A stretch of 24,000 nucleotides of DNA from Anaerovoracaceae bacterium. GTDB taxonomy: Bacteria; Bacillota; Clostridia; Peptostreptococcales; Anaerovoracaceae. This document shows, piece by piece, positions 5,664-23,375 of the stretch; the stretch's first letter is position 1, and every line of letters starts with the position of its first letter. A program made the translations under genes and the position numbers. Location: contig CAXXMM010000007.1 in the NCBI GenBank assembly GCA_963676385.2, positions 38,096 through 62,095 of the forward strand. The letters are read 5' to 3'. The notes below the pieces were generated by a model. It was not told the DNA's origin, did not search any database, and saw only the letters and a program-made list of their open reading frames with translations.

Positions 5664-8660
5664 TCACCCCATCGTAATCTCTACTCCACTGCCTCCGCTT
5701 TTTTCTTTCTTCACCACGATCTGTTTGTCGATGCGGTTTTTCAGTTGGGCTACGTGGGAAATGATACCCACCAGTTTGCTGCCTTCGCTGAGTTTGCCCA
5801 AGACCTGAATGGCTTGGTTCAGGGTATCTTCGTCCAAAGAGCCAAAGCCTTCGTCAATGAACATGGTATCCAAATGCACGCCGCCGGCGGAGGATTGGAT
5901 TTCGTCAGAAAGTCCCAGGGCCAAGGATAGGGAGGCCATGAAGGACTCGCCCCCGGAAAGGGATTTGACGCTGCGGATGCTTCCGTTATAGTGATCCCGC
6001 ACATCCAATTCCAGGCCGCTTTGGCTACGCAGGTTGTCCGCTTCCTTTCTACGGAGAAGTTCATACTGCCCATCGGACATGACCATGAACCGGGTGTTGG
6101 CCCGGGCGATGATTCGGTCAAAGTAGGTCATCTGGACATAGGTTTCCAGGGTGATTCGTTCCTTGCCGGAAAGGTTGCCGTTGGCGGTGTTGGCCAGGGC
6201 ATTGACCCAAGTCCCTTTCTCTTCTATAACGGTCAATCCGGCGCTTTTTTGTTCAATGTTGGCGCGGTTGCTTTGGTTGTTGCTGATTCGAGTAGCCACT
6301 TCTTTAATGTCATCCAGCAGTTTATCCATGGCGGTTGTCTTTTCTTTCAACTGCTCCTGCAAGCCTACCACCTCCGGGTTGGCGTCTGCTGTTGGGAGTT
6401 GGCCTTTTAGGGTCTTGATGGTGGTTTGGCAGTTGTTATATTGGGTGTTCTTGTCATCAAACGCCTTATTTGATACATCAATTGCATCTTGTAGGCTTTT
6501 CATGTTGGTTTCCAGTTGTTTGATGTTGGCCTTGGCCAGCTCCAGTTCCGGAAACTCCAGGGTGGATTTTAGTTTTTGTATTTGCTGGGCGAGGCCTGCA
6601 ATGCCGGTTTCCAGTTTGGTTTTTTCTTCTTTCAAGGAAAGGATTTTGCCGTCGGCTTCTTTCTGATTCGCCTCTAGTTTTGGCAGGCTTTCTTCTAAAA
6701 TGGTCTTTCGATCCAAGGCAGAAACCGCTTGGGCATAGGCTTGCTCCAAATTTTTGAGAGTATCTGCCATCTGAGATTTTTTGTCCTGTATGAAAGTATC
6801 TAAATCAGGTGGCAGTTGCATGTCTGCTGCATCTTGCGCGGCGGAAATGACATCTTGTGCAATGCAAGGGTTATTTTCGCCATAAAGTTGGGTTTTTTCG
6901 CCATGTTGTGCAAGGTGGACTGCATCTTGCGTAGCGGAAATGACATCTTGTGCATGGCCGACATTTCGTGCATCAAAACTGGCATCTTGTGCATGACAAA
7001 GGTTATTTTCGCCATAAAAGTGGTTATTTTCGCCATGTTCTGCTAGAAGGCTGTCACAAAGTGCCAATAAAGCGACACGACTTGCACTTTCTCGCTCCAC
7101 CAAAACGCCGGCGGCCTTGCTATGATCTGCGGCCTGGGCCTGGGCTTGATCGGCGGTGGCTTTGGCCTCTTTTAATTCTTTTTCCGATGGGGCTTCCGCC
7201 GCCAGTGGGGCTGGTTCCGGATGTTCCTTGGAACCACACACGGGGCAGGGTTCTCCCGGCTTCAGCTGGGTTGAGAGAATGCCGGCTTGCGCATCAAGAA
7301 ATGCAGTATTCAGCCATAAAAAGCTGTCAGCTGACACTTCAGCCTTGTTTTTTGACACTTCATACCGAGACTGGGCCGCTTCCAGCTCCGAAAGCAGTTT
7401 CTTGTATCTTATGTAATCCTGTTCCAAGCCAAGGAGGGCTTGGGATTGTTTCCTTTCTTTTTCTAAATTCTGCTGGAGGGTCAGCTTGGTTTCCCCGGCG
7501 TTTTTGAGGGTATCCAGTTCTTCCTTGGTAGCCCCAATTTTGGCCTCCAGCTGAGACGCTGCCGCCACAACCGCAGACAGGTTGACTTCATTTTCCCGTC
7601 GGGCGGTTTCCATGCCTCGGGCTTCCGTCTCTAAGCGAACCAGTTCATCGTACTGAACCAGTTTGTTTTGGGCGGTGGTAATCTGTTGCGATAGGGTCTG
7701 GATTTCCGGTTGATGGCCTTGGGCCTCTTCCTTGGCGACCTTTTGGGCTGCCAGTTCCGCTGTAAGCTGGGCCAGCAACACTTCTTGACGAGCCAACTCC
7801 CCTCGGGTTATTTCCACCTGCCGGGCCTTTTCCAAGGCACCCACTAGGTCATCCTTTTCCTTTCCCAGGGTGGTATGTTGTTCCTCCAAGTTCGTCTGAA
7901 GTTTCGTGTCTTGGTCAATGATTCGCCCCAGCAAATCCAAAAACTCGGTGACAGGAACCTGGCCGGGGTTTTCCTTTAAGGTTTGTAACTCCAGCCCCAA
8001 AACGTCGTCAGGCTTTGGGATAATGCCGCTGATGTATTGGGCGATGCTTTGCCGATGGGCTTCTCTTTCCCGGGAAAGACCGATGGCCTCCCTGCTGAGT
8101 TTTTCCTGAAGGGTATAGTAGGGGGTGGTTGCAAATATTTTGCGAAAAATATCCTGCCGATCCTTGGTGGATGCGGTGAGGAGTTTCAAAAATTCTCCCT
8201 GAGCGATCATGGCAATCTGGGCAAATTGGTTGCGGGTCAGGCCAATGATTTCCTCAATGGCGCCGGTGACTTCCTTCACCTTGGTGATAACCCTGCCGTC
8301 GGGAAGGGTCAACTGGGCCTCGGGTTTTTGGGTGGTGGTGCCGCCGCCTCGCTGGGCAGGCCGCTCATATTCCGGATTTCGCCGGACGGTATATTCTTTT
8401 GCTCCGTAACGGAACGTCATTTCCACAAAGGTGGGGGTTTCCGGGGCTGCGTACTTGCTACGAAACATGGAAGTTTCCCGGTTGTCCCCGCTGGCTTCCC
8501 CATAAAGAGCAAAGGCAATGGCGTCAAACAGGGTGGTTTTGCCGGAACCGGTGTCCCCGGTAATCAGGTATAGTCCGTGGTCTCCCAGCTTGGTCATATC
8601 CAGCTTGGTCAGGCCGGCGTAGGGGCCGAAGGCGGAAATGGTCAGTTTGGTTGGTCTCAT
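5664..8660 (-). CDS. sbcC: SbcC (Rad50-like) ATPase subunit of the SbcCD nuclease
   Basis: Walker A GDTGSGKTT, Q-loop IAQGEF, long coiled coil, zinc hook CPVCGS, signature LSGGESF, Walker B MFIDEGFGSLD, H-loop ISHV. I place the start at ATG 8660 (MRPTKLTISAFGPY). GGGAGGG lies 6 nt upstream, and the start forms an ATGA overlap with the sbcD stop. The track start at 8675 lies inside that RBS. Confidence 0.95.
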   Translation of the reverse strand: MRPTKLTISAFGPYAGLTKLDMTKLGDHGLYLITGDTGSGKTTLFDAIAFALYGEASGDNRETSMFRSKYAAPETPTFVEMTFRYGAKEYTVRRNPEYERPAQRGGGTTTQKPEAQLTLPDGRVITKVKEVTGAIEEIIGLTRNQFAQIAMIAQGEFLKLLTASTKDRQDIFRKIFATTPYYTLQEKLSREAIGLSREREAHRQSIAQYISGIIPKPDDVLGLELQTLKENPGQVPVTEFLDLLGRIIDQDTKLQTNLEEQHTTLGKEKDDLVGALEKARQVEITRGELARQEVLLAQLTAELAAQKVAKEEAQGHQPEIQTLSQQITTAQNKLVQYDELVRLETEARGMETARRENEVNLSAVVAAASQLEAKIGATKEELDTLKNAGETKLTLQQNLEKERKQSQALLGLEQDYIRYKKLLSELEAAQSRYEVSKNKAEVSADSFLWLNTAFLDAQAGILSTQLKPGEPCPVCGSKEHPEPAPLAAEAPSEKELKEAKATADQAQAQAADHSKAAGVLVERESASRVALLALCDSLLAEHGENNHFYGENNLCHAQDASFDARNVGHAQDVISATQDAVHLAQHGEKTQLYGENNPCIAQDVISAAQDAADMQLPPDLDTFIQDKKSQMADTLKNLEQAYAQAVSALDRKTILEESLPKLEANQKEADGKILSLKEEKTKLETGIAGLAQQIQKLKSTLEFPELELAKANIKQLETNMKSLQDAIDVSNKAFDDKNTQYNNCQTTIKTLKGQLPTADANPEVVGLQEQLKEKTTAMDKLLDDIKEVATRISNNQSNRANIEQKSAGLTVIEEKGTWVNALANTANGNLSGKERITLETYVQMTYFDRIIARANTRFMVMSDGQYELLRRKEADNLRSQSGLELDVRDHYNGSIRSVKSLSGGESFMASLSLALGLSDEIQSSAGGVHLDTMFIDEGFGSLDEDTLNQAIQVLGKLSEGSKLVGIISHVAQLKNRIDKQIVVKKEKSGGSGVEITMG
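6828..7043. repeat. in-frame nested tandem repeat inside sbcC (units of 93 and 123 nt)
   Basis: Unit A is 6828-6920 and unit B is 6921-7043. They share a 34-nt block at 32/34 identity (tgcatcttgcg..gcggaaatgacatcttgtgca) and a 46-nt block at about 40/46. CATCTTG(Y)GC occurs 5 times and TTTTCGCCAT occurs 4 times. Both unit lengths are multiples of 3. Confidence 0.85.
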
Positions 8661-9793
8661 TTTCGTCCCTCCCATATGGTTTCAATCAGGTCTTGGGTGA
8701 AGTCCCGTTGCCGGTCGCTAAGGGGCTTGTTGTTTTGCAGCTGAAACAGCTCTTCAAAAAGAGTGAGGGGCGTCTTTTGTTCCGGGTTTTCGGTGACGGT
8801 GATTTGGGCACTGGATCTGGTCCTTTGGTTGTCGTAGTCCACCTTCATGATGTTAGGATAAATGGAACGGAGTTTGCCGATGACGTCGGGAATGTCCTCT
8901 TCATCGGTGAGGGTAATGTGAAGGTAGTCCTCTGTGGGAGTGCCTCGGTAGGTTTCCCGGGCGGTAAGATCCAGGTAGCTGCCTTTTATCTCACTCATGT
9001 CCCGCTTGGGGGTCAGGGGAAGGGTGCGGATGTCCACGGTTCCTTTGGGTCCCAGTTCCACCAAGGTGACGGATTTGGTGTGAGCCGCCTCGCTGAAAGA
9101 ATACTTGAGCGGGGTTCCGCTGTACCGGATGGTGGGCCGAATCACCTGCTGGGGTCCGTGAAGATGGCCCAGAGCCACATAGTCAAAGTCATGAAAAACT
9201 TCCCCATCCACGTTATCGCTGCCGCCGATACTGATTTCTTCCGAATCGCTTCGGGTGGCGCCGGTGACAAATTGGTGGGTGAGAAGGACGGTTCGATGGG
9301 CGGGGTGGGTATGGGCCTCATGCAAAGCAACCCTCACTGCGTCGGTATAGGTTTCAATGGGCTCTTCCGGAAAAAACCTTCGGACGTGGGCAGGTTTGAT
9401 GAAGGGAAGGAGGAAAAAATCCACTTCCCCGTAGGCGTCTTTTAGGGTGATGGGCGCAAGGTGTCCGTTATATACCGGACTTAAGAAAATGCCGCTTTGG
9501 CTGATGATTCGGCCGCCAAAGGCAATTCGCTCCGGGGAGTCGTGGTTGCCGCTGATAATCAGGACCGCCAAATGGCGCCGCTCCAGTTTCACCAAAAAAT
9601 CATCAAAAAGCTGGACCGCCTCGGCGCTGGGAACGGATTTGTCATACACGTCCCCGGCAATCAAAATGGCATCCGGCTTTTCGTCGTCGATGATGTTTAT
9701 AATCTTGGTCAGGATGTACTCCTGATCCTCCAACATGGAAAACTCATTGACCCGTTTCCCGATGTGAAGGTCTGAGAGGTGGATTAGTTTCAT
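8657..9793 (-). CDS. sbcD: SbcD (Mre11-like) nuclease subunit
   Basis: 378 aa. Calcineurin-like phosphoesterase motifs IHLSDLHIG, GDVYD, GNHD and LGHLH. GGAGGA lies 7 nt before the ATG. The gene is directly coupled to sbcC. Confidence 0.95.
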   Translation of the reverse strand: MKLIHLSDLHIGKRVNEFSMLEDQEYILTKIINIIDDEKPDAILIAGDVYDKSVPSAEAVQLFDDFLVKLERRHLAVLIISGNHDSPERIAFGGRIISQSGIFLSPVYNGHLAPITLKDAYGEVDFFLLPFIKPAHVRRFFPEEPIETYTDAVRVALHEAHTHPAHRTVLLTHQFVTGATRSDSEEISIGGSDNVDGEVFHDFDYVALGHLHGPQQVIRPTIRYSGTPLKYSFSEAAHTKSVTLVELGPKGTVDIRTLPLTPKRDMSEIKGSYLDLTARETYRGTPTEDYLHITLTDEEDIPDVIGKLRSIYPNIMKVDYDNQRTRSSAQITVTENPEQKTPLTLFEELFQLQNNKPLSDRQRDFTQDLIETIWEGRK

Positions 9794-9915
9794 GGGCGAT
9801 CCTCCGAAATTGCTGCTTTCAAAATATCGTTTGCATTCTTGTCCATGATTTCAATGAGTTTTCCAACTCCTAAATATTACGAGGCAATATCGGTAATATT
9901 CTACATTAGAAGATT

Positions 9916-10410
9916 TTAATTAATTTGCTCTTCTTGGTTTTTATTGATATTGTTACTTGATGTTTTTATTGTATCCTCAGCAATTTGTATTTGCATGGCT
10001 CTCAAAGTTGCTTCATCGTCAATTTTATTACACAAACCAGTTGGATAGTACGTTCTTTTTATGATGTCCCACCTAATTGTTTTATATTTTAATACTTTTG
10101 AAATTTCCTCTAGCAGTCTAAGATATTTGTCGTCAATATTGGGGTTTTGCTCAGGCTGTTTTTCTGTTTCATCAAGAAATGCCCTTAATGCATCTCTCAC
10201 ATTATTATTAGAATAAAATATCACTTCAAGTGAATTAATTGCTTTGACACTTTCCTCTGAAGCAATGAAGTATCGGTGTGCCATTAATGTCTCAAATATT
10301 TCTCTTTTTTTTGTGCGTGCATTATTTATTTTTTGCCACAAAATAGTTACTAGGGTTGCCATTAATCCTGACAATAATACCGTTATTATTGCCCCCAAAT
10401 TACCTTCCAT
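9916..10410 (-). CDS. hypothetical protein with an N-terminal TM anchor
   Basis: 164-aa ORF. GGAGGG lies 6 nt before the ATG. One N-terminal hydrophobic helix (GAIITVLLSGLMATLVTILW) is followed by a charged helical region. I cannot confidently name a family. Confidence 0.6.
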   Translation of the reverse strand: MEGNLGAIITVLLSGLMATLVTILWQKINNARTKKREIFETLMAHRYFIASEESVKAINSLEVIFYSNNNVRDALRAFLDETEKQPEQNPNIDDKYLRLLEEISKVLKYKTIRWDIIKRTYYPTGLCNKIDDEATLRAMQIQIAEDTIKTSSNNINKNQEEQIN

Positions 10411-10502
10411 TGAATTCCCTCCATAAATTACTACTTCACAACTTTTTCTCCAATTTGTGTGTATGCGTTTTGATTATTTAACACCACCAGTATCTAAAAT
10501 TA

Positions 10503-10889
10503 CTAATATGCCAATACTTTATCTGAATCCATAAGCTTATACATAAGTAGGTGCCCATCATCATCTCCAATGCCCATAGCAAACTCATCATTGCCAAAAT
10601 ACTGCTCATGAACTTGCTTTGCTTTATCTAGCAGATTTTCACCGTATGCCAGCATTAATGACTCGTCTGAATTGTTCCAAACATCATCAATCACAAACAT
10701 ATAGAAAGGCTCTCCATCGTCCCCCGCAGAATACTCGGCTTCAATGCCAAGATAGGAGGCGTATGTATCCAACTCGTCGTTTACGCTTGTAATTGAATCG
10801 TCAGCAAGTGGATCAGCATTATTATTTCCACACCCAATGTTCACTATCGTTAATATAAATATAATGACCATGATTATTGTCTTACGCAT
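10503..10889 (-). CDS. small acidic lipoprotein, function unknown
   Basis: I place the start at the internal ATG 10889 (MRKTIIMVIIFILTIVNIGCGNN). This gives a signal peptide plus lipobox Cys, with AGGAAAGAGAG upstream. The track ORF extends to 10931 without an RBS. Confidence 0.7.
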   Translation of the reverse strand: MRKTIIMVIIFILTIVNIGCGNNNADPLADDSITSVNDELDTYASYLGIEAEYSAGDDGEPFYMFVIDDVWNNSDESLMLAYGENLLDKAKQVHEQYFGNDEFAMGIGDDDGHLLMYKLMDSDKVLAY

Positions 10890-10911
10890 TGTATCTCTCT
10901 TTCCTGATCTG

Positions 10912-11295
10912 TTACTCAACCATAAAATCATTTAAAAGATGATATACTTTCAATAATAGATTTCCCATAGTCTTATCTTTAAAAAATCTTAGTTCAATGC
11001 TAATTCCGCCAGCCATTATTAATTTAATTTCTGAATCAAGGTCAAATGTTCCCGCAGTTTCAACAGCATAAGTCACAATATTTTTATACGGAATTGAATA
11101 ATACTCTATCTTTTTTCCTGTAATCCCCTGCTTGTCCGCTACTAGAATCCGTTTATCTGTAAACACCGCAACATCTCGAAGCGTTTTCACCGCAAAACAA
11201 ATGTTTTCCTTTTGAGAAATAAATGGTTTGAGCGATTCCGAAACAGGTACTTCAGTATAGAAGTTAAAAATTTTATTGAAGCTTACGTCTGGCAT
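10912..11295 (-). CDS. bacterial PH-domain (bPH_1 / YvbH-like) protein
   Basis: DVAVFTDKRILVADKQGITGKKIEYYSIPYKNIVTYAVETAGTFDLDSEIKL matches my recollection of the bacterial PH domain signature. AAAGGAGA sits 10 nt before ATG 11295. The track start at 11304 is a GTG abutting the RBS. Confidence 0.72.
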   Translation of the reverse strand: MPDVSFNKIFNFYTEVPVSESLKPFISQKENICFAVKTLRDVAVFTDKRILVADKQGITGKKIEYYSIPYKNIVTYAVETAGTFDLDSEIKLIMAGGISIELRFFKDKTMGNLLLKVYHLLNDFMVE

Positions 11296-11322
11296 TTTGA
11301 ACACTCTCCTTTCAAATGAGAA

Positions 11323-12789
11323 CTATTGTTTTTCAAACGTTACGTTTGCATTTACTGTAAGAAATATATGTTGCCCAGTGCCAACTTTAACCGTTTTTTG
11401 TTGATTTGTAGCTGTAAACTCATAAGTCTTAACATTTGCAACTTCAGTGTAACCATCAGAATTTTTTGTTGTCTTGTCTTTATCCACATAGACCATACAC
11501 CAGTTAGAATTGCTAGTCACTGTGTATGTTCCTTTAGGCACTTTATACCAAACATAATAGGAAGAATCAATTTTTACTTTTTCGCCATAAGCGCCTAACG
11601 CTTCATCGACTAGCGTAAAACTAGTTCCAGTTGACGAACTTTTTATCTCTTTTCTACCTTTATCATATTTGGGGATTTTATTATCAATAATCCATGTGCC
11701 ATCCAACATGAAGGCCACAATTTTATGGGAATCTCCATTCACCTTATAAATAATCCGAAATGGAATTTCTGATTCAACTCCAAATGCATTTTTTGCTTCA
11801 ACGGATGACGTCAGTTGATAATATGATCTTTCACGACCATAGCTCCAATTAAGCATGCTGAAATCAGCTGAACTAGGATAGTTTAGATTGCTTTTTACGT
11901 AGTCTTCGGATTCTACTGCCAGTTGATCGGCAATATCCATATCAACCAAAAAATCCTTTATCGGATATGATTCAAACCCTTGAAGGAAGAGTTTAATATC
12001 CCCAAGATTTACGCTGTTGATAGTATTGTCACCATTGGCATACAGGGTCATTGGGTGTTGATAATAAGAAAAAGAATATCGTTCCCCGCCAGCCCAGTCG
12101 TCCTCTTTTTGAAAGCTCTTTATTTTTCCAACTTTTAGACCGATTTTTTTGCAGGCTGACAGAAAATTAGTGTTTAAAGTATCATTGGCAATGCCGTCAA
12201 AAGTCTCAACCTCATCTTTTTCTTCGGTTTTCTCATCAAATGAGAAAAACCCTACAATTTTATCCCATAAGCTAACACCATCTGATGCCTTTGCCTCTCC
12301 TTTTTCGTCAGTTTCGGATTTATCCTTATTGTCTGAATTTGCCGTTGCTTCCTGTTGTGCAGTATAAACGGCATATGCTTTTTCATATTCATTTGAATGG
12401 AGTTCCAAAATTTGTCCACCGATTAGGACAAATACAAATGTTGATATTAATATTGCCAAAGTTGTAGATGCAAATTTGTGCTTTCGGTACAACGGTAATT
12501 TGTCCCGGAGTCCAAAAATATTCGACAAGATTAGATAGGGTACAAAAAACGCAAATACAACAATCAACCCACTCGCTTTATCAATAAACGAGTCAAATGT
12601 TGATGTTTCTTGTATGACTCCATCACTAAATAACACAGCTACAAAAGAGATAAAAAGCAAAAGCAAATACAGAGAAGCCAGCAGCATTTTGTACCATTTC
12701 CGACTACGAAATCCAAACAAACGAAAGGATTTTGTTTTTTCTTCTCTGATAGAATCGTTACCCTGCATTGGGCCATCATTTTCCTTCAT
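11323..12789 (-). CDS. multi-pass membrane protein with acidic linker and large extracytoplasmic beta-rich domain, function unknown
   Basis: I place the start at ATG 12789 (MKENDGPMQ), with GGAGGA 5 nt upstream. About 4 N-terminal TM segments are followed by a D/E/K-rich linker and then a soluble domain. The track start at 12903 would overlap the phosphatase gene by 128 nt. Confidence 0.7.
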   Translation of the reverse strand: MKENDGPMQGNDSIREEKTKSFRLFGFRSRKWYKMLLASLYLLLLFISFVAVLFSDGVIQETSTFDSFIDKASGLIVVFAFFVPYLILSNIFGLRDKLPLYRKHKFASTTLAILISTFVFVLIGGQILELHSNEYEKAYAVYTAQQEATANSDNKDKSETDEKGEAKASDGVSLWDKIVGFFSFDEKTEEKDEVETFDGIANDTLNTNFLSACKKIGLKVGKIKSFQKEDDWAGGERYSFSYYQHPMTLYANGDNTINSVNLGDIKLFLQGFESYPIKDFLVDMDIADQLAVESEDYVKSNLNYPSSADFSMLNWSYGRERSYYQLTSSVEAKNAFGVESEIPFRIIYKVNGDSHKIVAFMLDGTWIIDNKIPKYDKGRKEIKSSSTGTSFTLVDEALGAYGEKVKIDSSYYVWYKVPKGTYTVTSNSNWCMVYVDKDKTTKNSDGYTEVANVKTYEFTATNQQKTVKVGTGQHIFLTVNANVTFEKQ

Positions 12790-13249
12790 GGTTATCCTCC
12801 GAAATAAGCCGGGAAAGCAGTGCCCAGCATCCTCTCTCAATGTCTCGGTAAGCCTTTTCAAAATTTCGGGTGTACCAGGGATCCGCAATGTCCTTGGCTT
12901 CACCGGTGTATTCCGTTAAAAAGTGAAGTTTGTGGTGGCAGCTTTCCTGGAGAATCCGTTTGGCACTTTTCATATTGTGGTGGTCCATACAAAGGAGCAA
13001 ATCGTATTCTTCTCCGTCTTGGGCCGTGACCTGCCTAGCATGACGGGATTCAAAAGGAATCCCCTTTTCCCGCAGTTTCTTTTGGACAGGAGGATACATA
13101 TCCCTTCCCCGCTCGTCCGTGCTGGTGGCGGCGGAGGCAATGGCAAATCGGTGGCTTAGGTCCGCCTGTTCCACCAAGTGTTTCATGATAAATTCCGCCA
13201 TAGGGCTTCTGCAAATATTGCCGTGGCAGATGAAGAGAATTTTTGTCAT
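12776..13249 (-). CDS. low-molecular-weight protein-tyrosine (or arginine) phosphatase
   Basis: The CX5R(S) P-loop is ILFICHGNICRSPMAEF, and a downstream DP motif is present (IADPWY). The start at ATG 13249 (MTKILF) is favoured because the displaced paralogous fragment at 14863-14904 starts at the equivalent codon. The alternative upstream ATG is 13264. Confidence 0.92.
   Translation of the reverse strand: MTKILFICHGNICRSPMAEFIMKHLVEQADLSHRFAIASAATSTDERGRDMYPPVQKKLREKGIPFESRHARQVTAQDGEEYDLLLCMDHHNMKSAKRILQESCHHKLHFLTEYTGEAKDIADPWYTRNFEKAYRDIERGCWALLSRLISEDNHEGK
13218..13236. repeat. 19-nt direct repeat, copy 1 (inside the phosphatase active-site codons)
   Basis: ttgccgtggcaGatgaaga matches 14873-14891 at 18/19. 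Confidence 0.8.
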
Positions 13250-13425
13250 TTCGGTCTCTTTCATAATTTTATTCTTAATCTCCTTTAGTATAGCTTACTC
13301 CGCAACCAATATTAAATTCATGCCCATTCTCTTGAGGGAGATTTTGTGGTATTGCTTAGTCTCGAAATATATCATAGCAATTGCAATTTAATAATAACAA
13401 TCTCAAAATTCACCCCATTTTTATC

Positions 13426-14802
13426 CTAAACTTCAAAATTTGCATAATCGGAAAGCATACTTGATGTGTTTATGATTATTTTTTTTTGATTGCCATTAAA
13501 TTCATATCCACCTAAGGTCACATTATTATTTCTACCGGTACTGTCAGTAAAAAATATTGCATTATATATTTCAGTGATTTTCTGTTTAGTTGTGACCTGC
13601 TTTTTATTTTCTACTCTCTCAAACGATTCATCATGCCTCAACGATTTTCTTACTATCCTGTCCTTGAAATCTTCAGTATCTAAAATGATAATAAGAGGCT
13701 CTGGATTTTTTCCATTAATAAAATCAGTGTATAAAGTAAAGTCAACAATTCGCAAACCAATGACAATCGGTACAACGCACACGAGAATAAGCCATTTTGC
13801 TTCCCCATCTGGGAATGCAAACTCAAAACTCTTGTTGTTATGAGTAGGCTCATATAGAGCGGTCTTTACTTGACGGTAATATCTGCTAATCTCCCTTAAT
13901 TCCAAATGAAAATTATCAATAAAGTTGTTTGCTATCCTCTCCAGGTAATATGTAGAATCTAAACCCATTTTATTATATAGCCCACTCTTATCTGCAGGCG
14001 GGAGCGCAATCCGCAAATCAAAAAATCTGTCCAAATACCTACATGCATCAAAAGAATTTCCATAATAGTGTTTTATTGTATGTTGGAGTTCCTGCAAGTT
14101 GACTGAAAATATAAATGTTATTCTTTCATCGCACAAATAATGCTTAATCTGCTCCAGTAAGTGCACGGCATAACTAGGTTTGCAGCGATCCAATTCATCT
14201 ATGAAGACAAACAGCCTGTTACCTCTTTCTTCCAATATTTCTGCAAAAAAGTCTATAAACTTTCCTTCTAATTCCTTTTGTTTTTCAAATTCCTGAAGTG
14301 GATCTTCACTTCTTAAACTATTTAGAATCCCATTTACATTACGTCCCGAAATTGTCTCTATTATTGCACCGGCAACTTTATACAGATTGGTATCAGTATT
14401 AAACTGATACGCAATTCCAAGTTGTTTTGTAATTTCATATATTATAGAGAGTACCGGGTCCATATCATTATCGTTATCCCATGCATCATAGTACACTGCT
14501 ATATCACAATTATCATCCACGCTATTTTTATCTTTACCAAGAGGCAAAGAAGAAATGATTTTCTCTCTCTTTTTTTCATCCATGTCGCTCATTGGATTTT
14601 TTGCATTGATGACTAGGATTGATTGCTTAACAAAAAATGTTTTCCCGCTACCCCAACTCCCGTCAATTGCAATAGCGCTTAAACTTTCCTGTGCTAATAA
14701 CAAATTATACAAATGAACCAAATCCTTGTTTCGTTGTATTAGATTCTCCTGCAAAGCTTGTATTAGGTTTTCTTCTGTGGGTAAGATTTCAAAACTATTC
14801 AA
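13426..14802 (-). CDS. KAP-family P-loop NTPase
   Basis: 458 aa. Walker A is IDGSWGSGKTFF and Walker B is LFVFIDELDRCKP, the hallmark KAP pattern. A hydrophobic segment, WLILVCVVPIVIGLRIV, is inserted late in the NTPase region. The start is TTG with AAAGGGGA 5 nt upstream. Confidence 0.88.
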   Translation of the reverse strand: MNSFEILPTEENLIQALQENLIQRNKDLVHLYNLLLAQESLSAIAIDGSWGSGKTFFVKQSILVINAKNPMSDMDEKKREKIISSLPLGKDKNSVDDNCDIAVYYDAWDNDNDMDPVLSIIYEITKQLGIAYQFNTDTNLYKVAGAIIETISGRNVNGILNSLRSEDPLQEFEKQKELEGKFIDFFAEILEERGNRLFVFIDELDRCKPSYAVHLLEQIKHYLCDERITFIFSVNLQELQHTIKHYYGNSFDACRYLDRFFDLRIALPPADKSGLYNKMGLDSTYYLERIANNFIDNFHLELREISRYYRQVKTALYEPTHNNKSFEFAFPDGEAKWLILVCVVPIVIGLRIVDFTLYTDFINGKNPEPLIIILDTEDFKDRIVRKSLRHDESFERVENKKQVTTKQKITEIYNAIFFTDSTGRNNNVTLGGYEFNGNQKKIIINTSSMLSDYANFEV

Positions 14803-15021: not shown

Positions 15022-16041
15022 CTAATTTTCCAATGAAAAATCAATATTATCTTTGCACTTTACGCTGTTAATGCCTACAGTGGCATCAATTCTTCTTACC
15101 AATTTCTTAACTAATTCTTCCTCGGTATCCCAAACAATCATAGATTTTTGGGAAATATCAAAATGTGGTCGTTTTTCTTTGTGGATATCTTCAAATACAT
15201 CTTTTTTACAGCATACGATTACCTGCTTTCCAAGCCCCTGCGCATAACCAGCTTCATAATATGCTCCATAATTCGGAAAAGTAACATCTACAACTATAAA
15301 TTTGCTTTTAGAAATATCTGCAAATATTTCTGGAACGATTTGATTGTTGTGTTCCTTTTCATCAATAATGATTTCCTCATAGTGGCACTCACATATTGCC
15401 TTTCTAAATGCTTCTCTAATGCTCTGTGTTTTAATGCAGAACTTCATAGCAATAAATCCCTTGTTCATTGCCTGTTCCTTGTCATATAAATAACTAACTC
15501 TGCTCCATCCAGCAGCAGCAATTGAATATCGATTTTTTTCTTTATCATGTTTGATGTAACCCAATTCTTCAATTAAATGCAATACTGCCCTAGCTTCCGA
15601 TCTCATTTCATCTGGAGTTGTTGAATTACAAAATAATATCCTGGCATTTTTTTCTTCTTCAATGAAATTATCTTGTGGATTATGGTATATACAAGCTAAA
15701 TTTAATAAGATCCTATCTATTTTATTTTCAAAATTAAAAGGATAATTTTGCATATTATTTGCTAAATTAATTTTGGTAGAATCTTGGATATCATTACCTA
15801 TTTCTAATTCGCTATAAAAGAATTTCCATTTACACTTTTTATCAGCAATAATCTTGTAGGGAGTTCTTAATAAAATCTCACATATTAGATTATACCTTCT
15901 AACCACCTCTAACGCAGAACCAGAATCAACTGAATCATGTACTGTAAATTTATGTCCCGATTCACAGTAAATATACTTCCCATCTCCCACATCATTTTTT
16001 TTGCATTTCAAACTACATATTGGGCAGATATCAGTTTCCAT
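15022..16041 (-). CDS. Zn-ribbon / winged-helix-like / C-terminal nucleoside 2-deoxyribosyltransferase-like (TIR-related Rossmannoid) domain protein
   Basis: I place the start at ATG 16041 (METDICPICS), with GGAGGAG 4 nt upstream. The N-terminus has CPIC...CESGH. The middle has LHLIEELGYIKHDKEKNRYSIAAAGWSRV (wHTH-like). The C-terminus has KGFIAMKF ... SKFIVVDVTFPNYGAYYEAGYAQGLGKQVIVCC ... PHFDISQKSMIVW. I recognise that pattern from NDT-like/TIR-like domains, from memory and without a search. Confidence 0.7.
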   Translation of the reverse strand: METDICPICSLKCKKNDVGDGKYIYCESGHKFTVHDSVDSGSALEVVRRYNLICEILLRTPYKIIADKKCKWKFFYSELEIGNDIQDSTKINLANNMQNYPFNFENKIDRILLNLACIYHNPQDNFIEEEKNARILFCNSTTPDEMRSEARAVLHLIEELGYIKHDKEKNRYSIAAAGWSRVSYLYDKEQAMNKGFIAMKFCIKTQSIREAFRKAICECHYEEIIIDEKEHNNQIVPEIFADISKSKFIVVDVTFPNYGAYYEAGYAQGLGKQVIVCCKKDVFEDIHKEKRPHFDISQKSMIVWDTEEELVKKLVRRIDATVGINSVKCKDNIDFSLEN

Positions 16042-16131
16042 AATTCTCCTCCATACAATCATAATAACCATAAGTCGCAATAAAAGATGCACCGCTCAGT
16101 TCATTATTTTTAATCTATTCAATTTCATTTT

Positions 16132-16845
16132 CTATAATTCTGGCCAAACGCATTCGTCAGGTCCAACCCCAAGAGCTTTCTTCCCTGTTAATATCCCAAT
16201 ATGTAGTTTTTCATCATTTACTATTGTATGGATCTCTTTGAGTATATTTATATAGTCGTTTCTATCCTTTAATGCCACAGCTTTTTCCTTGAGTATAACA
16301 ACCATAAATAGCATTTTATCGCATCCTTCGTTTAAAAATGTATTGATAAGTTGTTGTCTTTTTTCTTCACCAATAAACTTATTATATATTGTCATTATCA
16401 ATTCATCTTTCTCCCACTTCTGTCTACCAGAAACGGCAATTGTTGTGACCTCTACACAATATTTTTTGTTTCCATAAAATGCCACAATATCAGATTGTCG
16501 TTTGTGTTTGTCATGAATAAGTTCAAAATTTATAAATTTCATTTCTCCAAGATAATTGAGAACTCTTACTTCGGCTAAAGCCGCGTCAACCCGGGCTTCA
16601 TCAAAATCATTTACAGAAAGTCCCGTCATCTCAAAAATATAATTTACATCATATCCAGTATGGTTTTCGGCCAATTGAAACATCTTACTTAAGGCCTTTA
16701 CGGTATTGATCTTGTTTTCAAATAGCGCTCGAGTGAGGCTATTTTCCTTTCTGTTATTAATACAATTTTTATAGTAATCTACAAGTGATTTTGGTATATA
16801 TGGATCAGCTTCTAGCTCTAAAATGTTCGATTGTAAGATTTGCAT
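16132..16845 (-). CDS. hypothetical 237-aa protein (orphan; weak hint of a restriction-endonuclease-like core)
   Basis: I place the start at ATG 16845 (MQILQSN), with GGGAGGA upstream. The track start at 16905 is a TTG with no RBS. The only motif-like stretch is SDIVAFYGNKKYCVEVTT (D ... E-x-T), which is not a canonical D...(D/E)xK. Confidence 0.6.
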   Translation of the reverse strand: MQILQSNILELEADPYIPKSLVDYYKNCINNRKENSLTRALFENKINTVKALSKMFQLAENHTGYDVNYIFEMTGLSVNDFDEARVDAALAEVRVLNYLGEMKFINFELIHDKHKRQSDIVAFYGNKKYCVEVTTIAVSGRQKWEKDELIMTIYNKFIGEEKRQQLINTFLNEGCDKMLFMVVILKEKAVALKDRNDYINILKEIHTIVNDEKLHIGILTGKKALGVGPDECVWPEL

Positions 16846-16906
16846 AAATCCTCCCTTCACACATATTCGTGGAACACTATAATACTTATTGTTTGCGCAC
16901 GACAAA

Positions 16907-19816
16907 TTATAAATTTAAACTATGTGTCAAATAATCATATATATCCTCCCGCACTGGTGTGTGCAGGAAGTAGTCGATTTCCACGGCGGACTTTTCGGTT
17001 CCGGGCATGATGAATTCTGTTGGTTTGCCTTGGGTTTCCATGGTGCCAAGGAAATAAAACTCCTTTGAAGTATTGTCATCTTTATTCTTACGCACGAAGA
17101 GAAGAATGATAACACCTCTTTCTTTAGCTTCATAAATTGTTTGCATGTCTTCCGATTCTTTTGTCCTGCCACCCTTGGAAATAGCAATCAACTTGTTTGG
17201 AGAAACAAAACGATCCTCATATTTTATCGTTGCGGCGATATCTTCATCTTTGTTATAGTTAATGAACACGGGGAAGGTCTTGGTGGTTCGGTCATATTTG
17301 TATCCCCCAATGTTCAGAGGGACTTCTGATTTTTCCCAGTCCATACAGCGGCAAGCGTCTTCATAGGTGTATTTTTGGTACAAGGTAAGGTTAATGTCCC
17401 CATACCGCTCCTTACAATTTCGCTCATAGTTATCTTTTGTAAGTCCCAAAACTTCTTCCACTAACTTTCTAAAAGTCTGATCTTTTAGGGCTTCCTTGAA
17501 GGCCTTGCTGATTTGGTATTCACCATTTATTTTTTCGATGAATATGCAGTTTTTGTAAGTAGCCTTTCCGCTTCCTGAAGTAAATTCATTGGTACAAATA
17601 TTGATTACGTTGTTGATGGTGTTTTCAGTTGGCAATATGCCATATTCTTCTTTCATTGTAGCGACAAAAGTTTCAACGGGACTCTTCTTGTTTGCCAACA
17701 AGACACGAAGAAACACCTCTTCATGAATTCTTTTTCCATTGGCAAATTTAACGGATATATATTCCAAGAATTCTTTTTGCAACTCTGTCAGTTCAACATG
17801 ATACTCTTTCTCATATTTCTTTAAGTAGTTGTAATATGATCCAAATTTATCAATAAAGCGCAAGATATCAATGGTGCCATGGTTATAGAAATCCTCCATG
17901 CTAGGAATTCTGCCCAGCCGGATTTTCAAATCAGTGTAAGCTTTTTTTAGAAGTTGAACATCTTGGAACCTTGCCTTATCCAAGGCCTGAAAAATTCGTT
18001 CTTTTGTGACTTGGTCAAAGCTTATGGTGGAGCATCCTGGTATAATTCTGCTTCCCTCTAATATGTATTTTCGAATGGTATCTTTGTTGTAGGAATAATC
18101 TCCTGAAAGAGCAATGGGAATCAGATAGTTATTCTTATAATTTCCAATAAAGTCGATCACCACCACATATTCCTTGTTGGGAATACGTCTGAGTCCTCTC
18201 CCCAACTGCTGCACAAATATAATCGCTGACTGGGTAGGTCGCAGCATCACAATTTGATTGATGGAAGGGATATCCACCCCTTCATTAAAAACATCCACTG
18301 TGACCACGTAGTCCAGCAGGTCTTCCCCATGATCGGCTTCCAACCGTGCAATGGCCAGTTCTCTTGTATCTTGAGAATCGTCACCTGTCAAGGCTTGGGT
18401 CCGATAGCCGTTTTTGTTTAGTTCATCAGACAGCCATCTGGCTTCTTCTTTTCGGCTGGTAAAAATCAGACCTTTTACCCGGTCTCCATCATAGCCATAG
18501 TATTGGATTTTTGAAATGATATGTTTGATTCTTTCATCGTTGGTCAAATACTTAAAGTCCGTATCATCCTTGATGACTTCCCCATTCACCGACATTTCGC
18601 TGACACCAAAGTAATGAAATGGGCAAATCATGTTTTCTTCCATGGCTTGTTTCAGTCGAATTTCATAGGCCACATTATGGTCAAACATGGCAAAAATATC
18701 AAACTCATCATTTCGTTCTGGGGTAGCGGACATGCCAAGCAGAAATTTTGGGTGGAAATAGTTATTTACTTTTTGATAGGTGGAAGCTCCCGCACGGTGG
18801 ACTTCATCAAAGACAATATAGTCAAAATCATCCGGCGCAAATTTCTGAAGCACGTCATCTTTTGACAATGTTTGGATGGTGGAAAAGATAAAATCTGCCT
18901 CAAAGTCTTTGTTGTTACCGCTGAGAATTGCTGTTTTTAGCTCCGACCCAAAAACGCGTCGAAAACTTCGCTGTGCTGATTTTGCAATGGTTTCTCGATG
19001 AACGATAAATAGGAATTTCTTTGCGCCAGCTTTTAGGGCATCAAAGGCAGCCAGATAGGTCTTTCCCGTTCCTGTGGCAGAAATCAATAGGGCCTTTGTC
19101 TCTCCACTTTTTCGAAGTCGTTCCAATGATGACAAGGCAGCCACTTGCATTTTGTTCGGGCTGATTCGTCCAATATGTCCTACCCGCTGGATTGCAATAT
19201 CTTTGTAACGCCTTTCGTCTTTATAGATTTTGGCATACTCATCAATCCACTCAAGGGTAACCGGGGTGGCCCGTTCATAGATCCCTTCAAACTCATGTAA
19301 GGATTCTTTGACAAGGTTGCCATTCTCGGCAGAAATCACCTTGAGATTCCATTCTTTGTTCAAGCAAAGAGCTGCTTGAGTCAGGTTACTGCTGCCAACG
19401 ATAATGGCGTATTCCGTTCCACGTCTGAATATATAGCCCTTGGAATGAAGGGCAGCTTCCTCTTCCGTAAGAATGCGGAGCTGAATGTTTTTTAGATTTA
19501 ATAATCTGCGTAATGCAGTGGGTTCAGTAAAATTTTGATATTGAGACGCAACAATTTTGCCTTTAACGCCTTTTTGCTCCAGTTCTTTTAGGATATCGCT
19601 TAATACCGATACCCCGCTGTTGGTGATAAACGCCACAGAAAAGAAAAATTCATCGCACTTGCCAAGCTCCGTGATGATGGAAGACAAAACCTTTTCTCCT
19701 TGCTGATAATCGTTTACAAGAAGTCTTGGTTTGTATTGTTCAGATACGATGCATTCTTTGTCAATAAAGGCATAACTGGCTCCATTGGCAATCTCAAGAT
19801 TATTTCCCAAAACCAT
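16907..19816 (-). CDS. HKD (PLD-family) nuclease - SF2 DEAD/DEAH-type helicase - DUF3427 fusion protein
   Basis: 969 aa. The N-terminus has a single HKD motif, ALHSKGYIF ... VGSSNLT. Helicase motif I is ISATGTGKT, II is VFDEVH, III is MSATPER and VI is QQLGRGLR. The C-terminal ~300-aa region after the helicase core ends in a ~150-aa domain (GGYKYD ... ILLFVRKN ... FYFLGT) that fits my recollection of DUF3427. The start is ATG 19816 or, better spaced from GGGAGG, TTG 19810. Confidence 0.92.
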   Translation of the reverse strand: MVLGNNLEIANGASYAFIDKECIVSEQYKPRLLVNDYQQGEKVLSSIITELGKCDEFFFSVAFITNSGVSVLSDILKELEQKGVKGKIVASQYQNFTEPTALRRLLNLKNIQLRILTEEEAALHSKGYIFRRGTEYAIIVGSSNLTQAALCLNKEWNLKVISAENGNLVKESLHEFEGIYERATPVTLEWIDEYAKIYKDERRYKDIAIQRVGHIGRISPNKMQVAALSSLERLRKSGETKALLISATGTGKTYLAAFDALKAGAKKFLFIVHRETIAKSAQRSFRRVFGSELKTAILSGNNKDFEADFIFSTIQTLSKDDVLQKFAPDDFDYIVFDEVHRAGASTYQKVNNYFHPKFLLGMSATPERNDEFDIFAMFDHNVAYEIRLKQAMEENMICPFHYFGVSEMSVNGEVIKDDTDFKYLTNDERIKHIISKIQYYGYDGDRVKGLIFTSRKEEARWLSDELNKNGYRTQALTGDDSQDTRELAIARLEADHGEDLLDYVVTVDVFNEGVDIPSINQIVMLRPTQSAIIFVQQLGRGLRRIPNKEYVVVIDFIGNYKNNYLIPIALSGDYSYNKDTIRKYILEGSRIIPGCSTISFDQVTKERIFQALDKARFQDVQLLKKAYTDLKIRLGRIPSMEDFYNHGTIDILRFIDKFGSYYNYLKKYEKEYHVELTELQKEFLEYISVKFANGKRIHEEVFLRVLLANKKSPVETFVATMKEEYGILPTENTINNVINICTNEFTSGSGKATYKNCIFIEKINGEYQISKAFKEALKDQTFRKLVEEVLGLTKDNYERNCKERYGDINLTLYQKYTYEDACRCMDWEKSEVPLNIGGYKYDRTTKTFPVFINYNKDEDIAATIKYEDRFVSPNKLIAISKGGRTKESEDMQTIYEAKERGVIILLFVRKNKDDNTSKEFYFLGTMETQGKPTEFIMPGTEKSAVEIDYFLHTPVREDIYDYLTHSLNL

Positions 19817-20213
19817 CCTCCCGCATTAGCTTCTCGACGATTGGCACGTCAGCAGGTGCCCACTCCAGTTGCAGCAAATCCTTTTTGTCCATCCATTTGA
19901 AATCAATGTGTTCAGTCAATGTAAATTTGTCAGATTCTACAGGGCACAAGAAGCTGTGCATTTTAATGAAAAAATCCGGATATTGATGTTCAATGGTCAA
20001 AAAAGAATCCACTTTTGATTGTTCCAGTTGAAGCTCCATCTCTTCATCAATCTCCCTAAGCAAGGCAACTTCCGGCGTTTCCCCTGGCTCGATTTTTCCT
20101 CCTGGGAATTCGTACTTGTATGAGATATAATCATAAGTTCCCTTGCCGCGCTGCATGCAAAGGATTTTTTGGTTATACGTGATAATGGCTGCTACAACTT
20201 CAATTGATTTCAT
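19800..20213 (-). CDS. NUDIX hydrolase (MutT/NudG-like size and layout)
   Basis: 137 aa. The Nudix box is GGKIEPGETPEVALLREIDEEMEL (G-x5-E-x7-REUxEE). The stop codon lies 17 nt inside the helicase ORF, and the helicase RBS lies inside the NUDIX 3' end. Confidence 0.9.
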   Translation of the reverse strand: MKSIEVVAAIITYNQKILCMQRGKGTYDYISYKYEFPGGKIEPGETPEVALLREIDEEMELQLEQSKVDSFLTIEHQYPDFFIKMHSFLCPVESDKFTLTEHIDFKWMDKKDLLQLEWAPADVPIVEKLMREDGFGK

Positions 20214-21973: not shown

Positions 21974-22073
21974 TTTTTGTCTACTTTTACTTGTGCAAAC
22001 TTGCATTTACTATTGCAAAGAGTCATTTTTGGATATACTTAATTCTGGTTGTCTGACCGGAATGGAGCATATC

Positions 22074-23375
22074 ATGAGCAAGCACTTATCTTTGTCGGAC
22101 AGAGCACTGATTGAACGCTGCCTTGTCCGAAATTTCACCTTCAACTCAATCGCCAGGTTGCTTGGACGTTCTTCATCCACCGTTTCACGTGAAATCCAAA
22201 AGCACCGTGCTTTTGCCAGTCGCATCGGCGATGGCAAGAACGAATGTCTCAACTATTTTGGATGTCTTCGTACGGACCTTTGTGGCGAGGCCCGCTCCAC
22301 AGGCTGTTTTTCCAGATGCAAAACCTGCAAAGATTTCGACTGTCAAGCCTTGTGCGGCCAATTTGTCTCAGTTCACTGCAAGCTCCTTGAAAAGCCTCCC
22401 TATGTCTGCACCGGATGCCTTTCACAAAAGGCCTGCAGGAAAGATCATGCCTACTACTCCGCACATCGGGCCCATGCAGCTTACCTAACCACCCTGAAGG
22501 AAAGCAGAAAAGGGCTTCGAATCAGTCCACAAAAGCTGTCGGAAATTGGAATTCTCATTTCTCCCCTCATCATGAAGGGCCAGTCCATCAACCACATTTT
22601 CTCCACTCATGCGGATGAAATCGGCTGCTCCGAGCGAACCATTTACAAGTACATCGACTGCCGGGCTTTCGATGTCAGGAACATCGATCTTCCCAAAAAA
22701 GTCGCCTACCGGCAACGAAAAAAGCAAAAAGTGCTGACAAAACTGGAGTATCGCTGCCGCAAAGGCCGCACCTACGAGGATTTCAACCATTATCTCGGCG
22801 AGCATCCCGGTGTTTCCGTCGTCGAGATGGACACGGTAAAAGGCAAGCGTTGCAAAGGCAAGGTTATCCTCACCATGATTTTTCGGCAAAACAATTTTAT
22901 GCTTATGTTTCTTATGGACGATGGCAAAATGAAAAGTGTTGAAGCTGTCTTCGACAAACTCACAAGCCTGCTTGGGCTTTCCTTGTTCCGCAAACTCTTC
23001 CCGATTATCCTCACCGACAACGGAGTCGAATTCAAGAACCCCGAAAACCTCGAATATTCGCTAAGCAACTGTCAGCGCACCCGGATCTTTTACTGCGACC
23101 CTCAGGCATCCTGGCAAAAGCCGCAGGTGGAGAAAAACCACGCCCTGCTTCGGCGAATCCTGCCCAAAGGCGTTTCATTCGACCCCTTATCTCAGGCGGA
23201 CCTGAACGTGGTTTGTCGTCACATCAACAGCGTGGCAAGAGAGGTATTCGGCAACAAAACGCCGTTTCAACTCCTGCAAGGGAAAGACTATGGAAAACTG
23301 CTGGATTCACTTGATCTCTCACCTATTCCACCCGATGAGGTCATTTTGAAACCGGCACTACTCAAACGTAAGTAG
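22074..23375 (+). CDS. IS30-family DDE transposase
   Basis: The N-terminal HTH is LSLSDRALIERCLVRNFTFNSIARLLGRSSSTVSREIQKH. The catalytic region has VVEMDTV ... ILTDNGVEF ... SWQKPQVEKNHALLRRILPKG. A Cys-rich insert follows the HTH. I place the start at ATG 22074 (MSKHLS), with GGAG 6 nt upstream. The track start is 21993. Confidence 0.92.
   Translation: MSKHLSLSDRALIERCLVRNFTFNSIARLLGRSSSTVSREIQKHRAFASRIGDGKNECLNYFGCLRTDLCGEARSTGCFSRCKTCKDFDCQALCGQFVSVHCKLLEKPPYVCTGCLSQKACRKDHAYYSAHRAHAAYLTTLKESRKGLRISPQKLSEIGILISPLIMKGQSINHIFSTHADEIGCSERTIYKYIDCRAFDVRNIDLPKKVAYRQRKKQKVLTKLEYRCRKGRTYEDFNHYLGEHPGVSVVEMDTVKGKRCKGKVILTMIFRQNNFMLMFLMDDGKMKSVEAVFDKLTSLLGLSLFRKLFPIILTDNGVEFKNPENLEYSLSNCQRTRIFYCDPQASWQKPQVEKNHALLRRILPKGVSFDPLSQADLNVVCRHINSVAREVFGNKTPFQLLQGKDYGKLLDSLDLSPIPPDEVILKPALLKRK

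Follow-up and report, generated by a model that had tools for sequence, protein, structure and literature searches.

A family of zinc-ribbon and winged-helix-like proteins with an NDT/TIR-like domain, nested in restriction-modification operons, as candidate single-gene anti-phage effectors

What is the function of a protein that joins a zinc ribbon and a winged-helix-like module to a domain related to both nucleoside 2-deoxyribosyltransferases (NDTs) and TIR proteins? The gene for such a protein lies in a 24,000-nucleotide (nt) stretch of DNA from an Anaerovoracaceae bacterium (contig CAXXMM010000007.1, positions 38,096 to 62,095; the whole stretch is called the window below). A preliminary description of it had proposed an effector or sensor that breaks N-glycosidic bonds. 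We found that the protein belongs to a large, unnamed single-gene family with a distinct three-part architecture, which nests in type I and type III restriction-modification (R-M) operons and is a member of no named system. We give about an even chance to the view that it is a single-protein anti-phage effector, in which a sensor controls an NDT/TIR-like N-glycosidase that depletes NAD+ or (deoxy)nucleotides.

The open reading frame (ORF) list and the translation place the gene on the minus strand at 15022-16041, from ATG to TAA, with a product of 339 residues; the coordinates of its parts given below are those of the same strand. Judged by its homologues and an AlphaFold2 model, the gene is complete and encodes a zinc ribbon, a helical and winged-helix region and an NDT/TIR-like domain. 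A longer ORF is mechanically possible from a GTG at 16092. Nevertheless, we regard the ATG at 16041 as the true start because a Shine-Dalgarno sequence, GGAGGAG, was read off the sequence four bases ahead of it (16046..16052, minus strand) and because the aligned homologues all start 4-6 residues ahead of the CPxC motif. Homologues of the protein fell into 933 clusters at 90% identity (E<=1e-3), almost all of them full length (320-340 residues), and an alignment of 38 close family sequences held 53 invariant columns. These two results rule out a chance ORF. The preliminary description had delimited the same ORF, which is thus an intact minus-strand gene with a ribosome-binding site, and every string that it quoted (KGFIAMKF, IFADISKSKFIVVDVTFPNYGAYYEAGYAQGLGKQVIVCC, PHFDISQKSMIVW, CPIC and LHLIEELGYIKHDKEKNRYSIAAAGW) was found in the translation. 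In addition to the 38-sequence alignment, we used alignments of plasmid relatives (27-32% identity) and of distant members (about 30% identity, n=17). The AlphaFold2 model of the whole protein, built on the alignment, had a mean predicted local distance difference test (pLDDT) score of 86.5 and a predicted TM-score (pTM) of 0.71.

Pfam, PADLOC and Foldseek all identified residues 194-322 (15076..15462) as an NDT/TIR-like Rossmannoid domain. The elements are ordered b1-a1-b2-a2-b3-a3-b4-b5-a5 in the model, as expected for the flavodoxin-like b-a-b fold with five parallel strands of the NDT superfamily. The Pfam family PF05014 (Nuc_deoxyrib_tr) matched all 38 close family members at E<=0.1, with a best E of 1.8e-6, and 16 of the 17 more distant members. 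Three relatives scored 33.9 (locus L014), 29.2 (L015) and 28.8 bits (L090), the last equal to the gathering score of 28.8. The PADLOC model PDLC00733, the CBASS "Effector TIR" model, also matched 38/38 members (best E 1e-8), and the Pfam families TIR and TIR_2 matched three (E 0.011) and one of the 38, respectively. When the AlphaFold model was compared with the PDB by Foldseek, the matches included the BcmB CMP N-glycosidase (E 4e-4), the RPS4 TIR domain (5e-4) and DNPH1 (3e-3), as well as SARM1 and TIR-1. The target TM was 0.6-0.7 for DNPH1 and 0.55-0.7 for BcmB, DNPH1 and viral NDTs together. The matches in BFVD were viral nucleoside 2-deoxyribosyltransferases, a CMP/hydroxymethyl-CMP (hmCMP) hydrolase and TIR proteins. 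The claim of an NDT/TIR-like C-terminus was therefore borne out by profile and fold searches alike.

We also considered DUF4062 (PF13271), which, according to a published report, is the TIR-like NADase of the Swarozyc defence system. It gave no match in the window protein, and it matched one of the 38 close members (E 0.062) and 3 of the 17 distant ones, always more weakly than PF05014 did. The C-terminal domain of the L090 protein (9497-10384 of its locus) is 49% identical to the window domain; it reaches the PF05014 gathering score and also exceeds that of DUF4062 (26.9 vs 24.7). Since L090 passes both, it links the NDT clan to the TIR-like NADases at the sequence level. On these profile matches, the C-terminal domain is best classified as nearest to the NDT clan and, in second place, as connected with TIR-like NADases.

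The domain carries catalytic-type residues. A phmmer alignment to DNPH1/Rcl, by itself non-significant (E of about 0.3), ran ungapped over IVVDVTFPNYGAYYEAGYAQGLGK versus VVAEVTQPSLGVGYELGRAVALGK. It set E263 on the Glu of GYELG, which we take to be the catalytic nucleophile of Rcl/DNPH1 and the equivalent of E98 of NDT. Glu263 (codon 15253..15255) is accordingly the predicted catalytic residue. It stands in the motif D252-x4-N257-x-G259-x3-E263-x-G265, which conforms to the pattern D/E-x4-(S/N)-x-G-x3-E-x-G that the protein has in common with the DNPH1/BcmB/NDT group, and it is invariant in the close family, in the plasmid relatives and in the distant relatives. The proposal that the Glu of YYEAGY occupies the catalytic position and is conserved was thus upheld. 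Glu238 (codon 15328..15330), in P237-E238, is a candidate second acidic active-site residue. Counted on the ungapped phmmer alignment, it lies one residue off the position that aligns with DNPH1 Asp69, presumably an active-site acidic residue and the basis for the role suggested for Glu238. P237-E238 is invariant in the close family; in the distant alignment, P237 is invariant and E238 nearly so. The codons of H293-F294-D295 (15157..15165) belong to an HFDxxQK motif between b4 and b5 that is invariant in all alignments, and these residues may contact a phosphate or ribose. The columns kept down to about 30% identity include F196, F201, N232, P237, G259, Y261, G265 and H293-F294-D295-x2-Q298.

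What does the N-terminal half add to this domain? Residues 1-40 (15922..16041) are predicted from the alignment and the model to form a four-Cys zinc ribbon with three short beta strands (14-18, 21-25 and 31-35; pLDDT above 90). The likely metal ligands are C6 and C9 of CPIC, C13 and C26, all four invariant in the 38 sequences. Pfam gave weak matches to Lar_restr_allev and Zn_ribbon_RlmA in a few members. The preliminary description had read a CPIC...CxxxH zinc ribbon; the ribbon stood but its His ligand did not, as H30 is not conserved. Distant members have CxxC...CxxC. In these members, the second Cys of the second knuckle falls opposite G29 of the window protein, and C13 has therefore probably replaced it as the fourth ligand. 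The next segment, residues 41-92 (15766..15921), consists of a long helix (43-59) and a small beta sheet in a separate model of residues 1-192 (pLDDT 93), and Foldseek with this N-terminal model found no significant PDB match to it.

Residues 93-175 (15517..15765) are predicted to form a winged-helix-like module with helices at 104-118 and 143-159 and a beta hairpin at 163-174. The conserved features of this region are N92, Y100-P101 and an NL(S/A) helix. Foldseek with the N-terminal model gave no significant match (best E 0.03). The local matches of residues 93-175, non-significant at E 0.05-0.3, were uniformly winged-helix proteins, namely MukE, MarR, PadR, the cullin WHB domain and Sso10a, over about 90 columns with a root-mean-square deviation (rmsd) of 3.3-4.7 Å and probabilities of 0.95-0.99. 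They support the winged-helix-like segment that had been proposed for the middle of the protein. The nucleic-acid sensing proposed along with it found no support. The family-average net charge is -3.8 for the module and -2.8 for the putative recognition helix 143-159, and nowhere from residue 111 to residue 180 does the alignment show a conserved Lys or Arg. Because the module is acidic, it is probably not a classical DNA reader, and the charge analysis weakens a classical DNA-binding helix-turn-helix (HTH) as a candidate. On the model, we therefore accept a winged-helix-like fold but not a DNA-reading HTH. By analogy with MukE or the cullin WHB domain, a protein-binding or scaffolding role would fit the winged-helix-like module better. 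A linker helix, residues 176-193 (15463..15516) with the invariant pair G178-W179 in the alignment and the model, leads into the C-terminal domain.

This architecture is widespread but has gone without a name. A profile of the C-terminal domain matched 10,166 representatives at E<=1e-3, 5,227 at E<=1e-10 and 358 at E<=1e-30 (clusters at 50% identity), and nearly all of the best 150 matches were 310-370 residues long and carried the domain at their C-terminal end. The zinc ribbon, the winged helix and the NDT-like domain, along with a YPxxF..KID..LL.LA helix, are retained by members that are about 30% identical. Other N-termini occur on the same C-terminal module: the L090 protein has an unrelated region of 168 residues, and plasmid relatives from Leptospira and Bradyrhizobium are without the zinc ribbon. 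Such sharing of one C-terminal module among varied N-termini would be expected if the module were a portable effector head. NCBIfam gave no match for the protein, and neither Pfam, NCBIfam nor PADLOC 2.0.0 has a dedicated model for the family. PHROGs assigned it to the unannotated family phrog_16139 (E 5e-29), and PGAP and IMG name its relatives "hypothetical" or "nucleoside 2-deoxyribosyltransferase". The literature searched described neither this architecture nor a named system for it. This agrees with the preliminary description, which knew of no characterised protein with these three parts; an NDT-like domain and a winged helix in the reverse order are known from retron Ec86 effectors.

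The family is patchily distributed over Clostridia, Erysipelotrichaceae, Treponema, Fibrobacterota, Anaerolineae, Bacteroidaceae and two archaea. The archaeal members come from metagenome-assembled genomes of Candidatus Methanogranum and a Nitrososphaerota archaeon (L056 and L088; 29-39% identity) and point to transfer between domains. Bacillus mycoides megaplasmids carry copies, as does a Leptospira plasmid, where a SEFIR-domain gene is adjacent. On the latter, Leptospira interrogans plasmid p4 (L015, 5258-7684), the ribbon-less homologue lies 12 nt downstream of the SEFIR-domain protein and upstream of a large S-adenosylmethionine-dependent methyltransferase, and p4, with a baseplate J gene, looks phage-like. 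The family is rare in viral contigs (nine IMG/VR loci), and tblastn against 50,697 phage records gave no match to the window protein.

Where do the relatives reside? An exact look-up of the window protein returned no record, and the wider context was therefore taken from homologues. We examined 86 loci, in which ORFs were called by a simple longest-ORF rule, the five neighbours on each side were clustered and the ten largest clusters were annotated with Pfam. Genes of type I or type III R-M systems were present within five genes in 19 of the 86 loci. In the three relatives most similar to the window protein (66-69% identity), the gene is flanked by hsdS and hsdR in a type I R-M operon; in one case it overlaps hsdR by 4 nt, and CBASS or Thoeris-like TIR genes follow downstream. 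A cluster of type III Res proteins (ResIII + RE_endonuc) was found in 11 loci at position +1 or +2, and a cluster of type III Mod proteins (N6_N4_Mtase) in 10 loci at position -1 or -2. In all ten type III loci where both genes are visible, the family gene stands between mod and res in the same orientation. The eleventh, L085, is cut upstream so that res alone is seen. With L085 counted, the gene is embedded in a single R-M operon, and oriented like its flanking genes, in 11 type III loci and in at least 5 of type I, and some embedded copies overlap their neighbours by 1-4 nt. PADLOC on the 80 longest immediate neighbours identified eight type III methyltransferases and seven type III restriction enzymes. 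Further clusters were tyrosine integrases (nine loci), HsdR (eight), HsdM (seven), serine recombinases, DUF4391, Schlafen/AlbA_2 and KilA-N proteins. Elsewhere, relatives neighbour McrBC/GmrSD and AbiTii; further copies are flanked by an integrase and a resolvase or are found in a prophage-like region with a tail gene close by. No further family recurred in the five-gene flanks of the 86 loci, and no partner gene is conserved.

Several genes appear to have been inserted into the type III operons that contain the family gene. In L062, L068, L078, L084, L087 and L094, a gene for a DUF4391 protein likewise lies three to five positions upstream, and in L084 a Schlafen/AlbA_2 protein stands between the family gene and res.

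Embedding in R-M operons ("guilt by embedding") is an accepted predictor of defence function. Given that relatives reside inside R-M operons and defence islands, a single-gene anti-phage effector is the most likely function. With a single enzyme-like domain in the protein and no partner gene conserved, the output must come from that domain. We propose the following scheme. The C-terminal domain would be an N-glycosidase in which Glu263, assisted by Glu238, cleaves a base or nicotinamide from (deoxy)ribose. Its substrate would most likely be NAD+ or a (deoxy)nucleotide, and the cleavage would drain a metabolite needed by phage and cell alike. The zinc ribbon and the winged-helix-like module may act as sensor and brake and keep the enzyme off until a phage-derived cue arrives. 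NDT and TIR enzymes need to assemble into dimers or oligomers for a complete active site, and the cue could promote such an assembly and thereby complete an NDT/TIR-type active site. The cue would rather be a protein, or a change in the neighbouring restriction complex, than a specific DNA sequence. Enzymes of the TIR/NDT group are an emerging common weapon of immunity in bacteria, plants and animals. As a large single-gene family, the proteins are compact and directly testable, and they are abundant in gut Clostridia, which are poorly explored for defence systems.

Several observations weigh against this effector function. First, 67 of the 86 loci (about 78%, as raw counts) have no R-M genes within five genes. 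Second, the family is absent from the published embedded candidates and has no PADLOC 2.0.0 model of its own, with a partial match to the TIR-effector model only. Third, the window protein itself scored 19.6 bits against PF05014 (E 1e-3), below the gathering threshold of 28.8, so that its formal place in this Pfam family is borderline, and a sequence and profile search of the PDB for solved structures gave only non-significant matches to DNPH1 (E ~0.3). In addition, by motif register the position of the strand-1 active-site Tyr of NDT and DNPH1, which we take to be Y7 in NDT and Y13 in Rcl, is held by the invariant F196 of GFIAMxF. With a Phe in place of that Tyr, the chemistry may differ from that of NDT and DNPH1. 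Finally, nothing in the analysis separates NAD+ from a nucleotide or DNA as the substrate.

If the substrate were DNA or a phage-specific nucleotide, the protein could be a base-excising enzyme that does not kill the host. It would attack phage DNA or modified nucleotides such as 5-hydroxymethyl-dCMP (5-hmdCMP) and 5-hydroxymethyl-dUMP (5-hmdUMP), the zinc ribbon and winged helix would hold or find DNA, and the activity would complement R-M systems that modified phages evade. We know of no NDT-fold DNA glycosylase, and this counts against the proposal. The nearest solved relatives do act on (hydroxymethyl)pyrimidine nucleotides, BcmB being a CMP N-glycosidase and DNPH1 a 5-hmdUMP hydrolase, and a viral CMP/hmCMP hydrolase is among the BFVD matches. 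The embedding in type I and III R-M operons resembles that of TgvAB, which is encoded within an operon of a type I R-M system and acts to restrict hypermodified phages. The window copy is one gene away from a methyl-directed type IV enzyme, and a 2013 comparative-genomics paper proposed DNA as the target of NDT domains linked to abortive infection (Abi). However, the N-terminal module is net acidic, and its putative recognition helix is without conserved basic surface residues. On balance, we consider base excision possible but unlikely.

The R-M placement also raises the possibility of a new class of restriction-linked immune enzyme, which we put forward tentatively and in two forms. In the first, the protein would be a guard like PrrC, which is held latent by its type I enzyme. 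It would be co-expressed with the type I or type III complex, sense its inactivation by phage anti-restriction proteins and then fire its N-glycosidase. In the second, it would be the first NDT-fold enzyme to remove bases from modified phage DNA or to destroy phage-specific modified nucleotides, and restriction would thereby be extended to genomes that escape the flanking R-M system. The gene's recurrent insertion between methylase and nuclease in two types of R-M operon is a lead on how second-line effectors are coupled to restriction.

The same placement between methylase and nuclease genes, found in the embedded loci counted above, would suit a one-component transcription regulator, whose winged helix binds DNA, whose NDT-like domain senses a nucleotide and which controls the restriction gene that follows. 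A winged-helix-like fold is predicted, and Foldseek also lists RpiR-type regulators, which join an HTH to a Rossmann-like SIS domain, over about 270 columns. Yet these RpiR alignments have an rmsd of about 19 Å, so that domain order alone is in common. Furthermore, the putative recognition helix is acidic and variable, the catalytic-type residues are invariant, the 67 loci without R-M genes hold no such operon to control, and the gene travels on its own between islands, prophage-like regions and plasmids. A regulator is thus improbable.

Still less probable is a signal generator like the TIR protein ThsB, which would synthesise a nucleotide second messenger that serves an effector encoded at another locus. 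The domain does resemble TIR, and TIR and SEFIR genes occur near some loci, but no partner family recurs among the 86 loci, and the sequence is closer to the NDT hydrolases (PF05014 in 38/38 members vs TIR in 3/38). We likewise think it very improbable that the protein is a mobile-element function in counter-defence or superinfection exclusion, for example one that destroys host immune signalling nucleotides. The phrog_16139 match, the nine IMG/VR loci and the relative near a tail gene in a prophage-like region would agree with such a role; the scarcity in viral contigs, the lack of any match in the 50,697 phage records and the embedding, in the same orientation, in chromosomal R-M operons argue against it. 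An ordinary nucleoside 2-deoxyribosyltransferase for nucleoside salvage is hardly credible, since the PGAP and IMG name for the homologues derives from the PF05014 match alone and is set against the extra 190-residue zinc-ribbon/winged-helix part, the patchy distribution, the location (a low-GC island, R-M operons, plasmids and the vicinity of integrases) and the lack of salvage genes nearby in the loci inspected.

How does the proposed effector compare with known systems? The best sequence and structure matches are DNPH1/Rcl, BcmB/MilB and the classical NDTs (PF05014, clan Nribosyltransf), with which the window domain has the Rossmannoid fold and strand order in common. These relatives are stand-alone metabolic proteins of about 150 residues, whereas the window protein has the additional N-terminal part and a defence context. 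It also differs in the strand-1 Phe and in falling under the PF05014 cut-off.

To our knowledge, few NDT-type defence effectors have been described, the retron Ec86 effector and ThsI among them, and their substrates are still debated. The retron Ec86 (Retron-Eco1) effector contains an NDT-like domain and a winged helix and reportedly acts by depleting adenine derivatives. It thus resembles the window protein in having both modules in one chain, and it gave a weak Foldseek match to the N-terminal model (7xjg_J, E 0.29). Unlike the window protein, it has the reversed domain order and no zinc ribbon and requires a reverse transcriptase and multicopy single-stranded DNA (msDNA). No sequence-level similarity between the two was detected, and no reverse transcriptase domain was found in the scanned window ORFs or among the ten largest annotated neighbour clusters of the 86 loci. 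Swarozyc, in which the DUF4062 NADase is joined to an HTH/winged module that recognises the phage portal, is likewise a single protein with a TIR/NDT-like glycohydrolase and a winged-helix-type module. It differs in the reversed domain order, in the lack of a zinc ribbon and in the DUF4062 signature, which is absent from the window protein. ThsI, the effector of type VIII Thoeris, combines a CMP-hydrolase domain with TPR and has been proposed to act on the nucleotide pool. It shares with the window protein an NDT-clan hydrolase domain in a proposed anti-phage effector, but it carries TPR and needs a TIR partner that makes cyclic ADP-ribose, whereas the window protein has no TPR match and no conserved partner. 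Membership in retron, Thoeris or CBASS systems was rejected because the required partners are absent. Fusions of AbiJ-NTD1 to NDT domains were predicted to be Abi-like in the 2013 paper. Finally, PrrC, TgvAB and the HEC/PDC candidates resemble the family in their placement between modification or specificity genes and restriction genes, in the same orientation and often with overlapping stops and starts. PrrC is an anticodon nuclease and TgvAB is GmrSD-like, so both belong to other enzyme families, and the family studied here is R-M-linked in 22% of loci.

The neighbourhood in the window is a defence island. The gene lies in a low-GC stretch from about 9.8 to 21.7 kb (GC 0.31-0.40); sbcC/sbcD at 5664-9793 have a GC of 0.49-0.54. 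Family scans found an IS30-family transposase at the far side of the island (21993-23375, plus strand). The window copy is outside any R-M operon. In order of transcription, all on one strand, the genes are those for a NUDIX protein, a PLD-helicase-DUF3427 protein, a 257-residue ORF, the zinc-ribbon protein and a KAP NTPase. The first two occupy 16907-20213 (minus strand) by PADLOC and Pfam. The 969-residue PLD-nuclease/helicase/DUF3427 protein matched the PADLOC model of a type IV methyl-directed restriction enzyme (E 1e-240), and the preceding MutT-like NUDIX protein of 137 residues matched PDC-S07 (E 1e-46). The NUDIX ORF overlaps the start of the 969-residue enzyme by 17 nt, which suggests a coupled pair. 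Searches of Pfam, NCBIfam, PADLOC and PHROGs gave no match for the 257-residue ORF at 16132-16905 (minus strand, from the ORF list). The TTG listed as its start directly adjoins the stop of the gene upstream, and its true start may be the internal Met of MQILQS. No homologue of this ORF, of the type IV enzyme or of the NUDIX gene was found beside any of the 86 relatives.

The KAP-family P-loop NTPase, 219 nt downstream of the gene (13426-14802, minus strand; PADLOC PDC-S20, E 5e-44; phrog_8614), recurs in one group only, the three near-identical Lachnospiraceae loci L089-L091 (8130-9479). There it lies 18 nt upstream of the NDT-like protein with the unrelated N-terminus, and a 272-residue ORF, a Tn916-type integrase and a low-molecular-weight phosphotyrosine phosphatase gene (47% identical) come next. 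This recurrence may reflect a shared insertion hotspot or, less likely, an independent association or a link between the KAP and NDT-like proteins. The other island genes, on the minus strand at 9916-13264, include those for a DUF6680 protein (9916-10410), a 142-residue ORF and a bacterial PH-domain protein (10912-11304). A further island ORF of 526 residues matched phrog_26910 (E 2e-12), and its listed GTG start overlaps the low-molecular-weight phosphotyrosine phosphatase gene of the window (12776-13264) by 128 nt.

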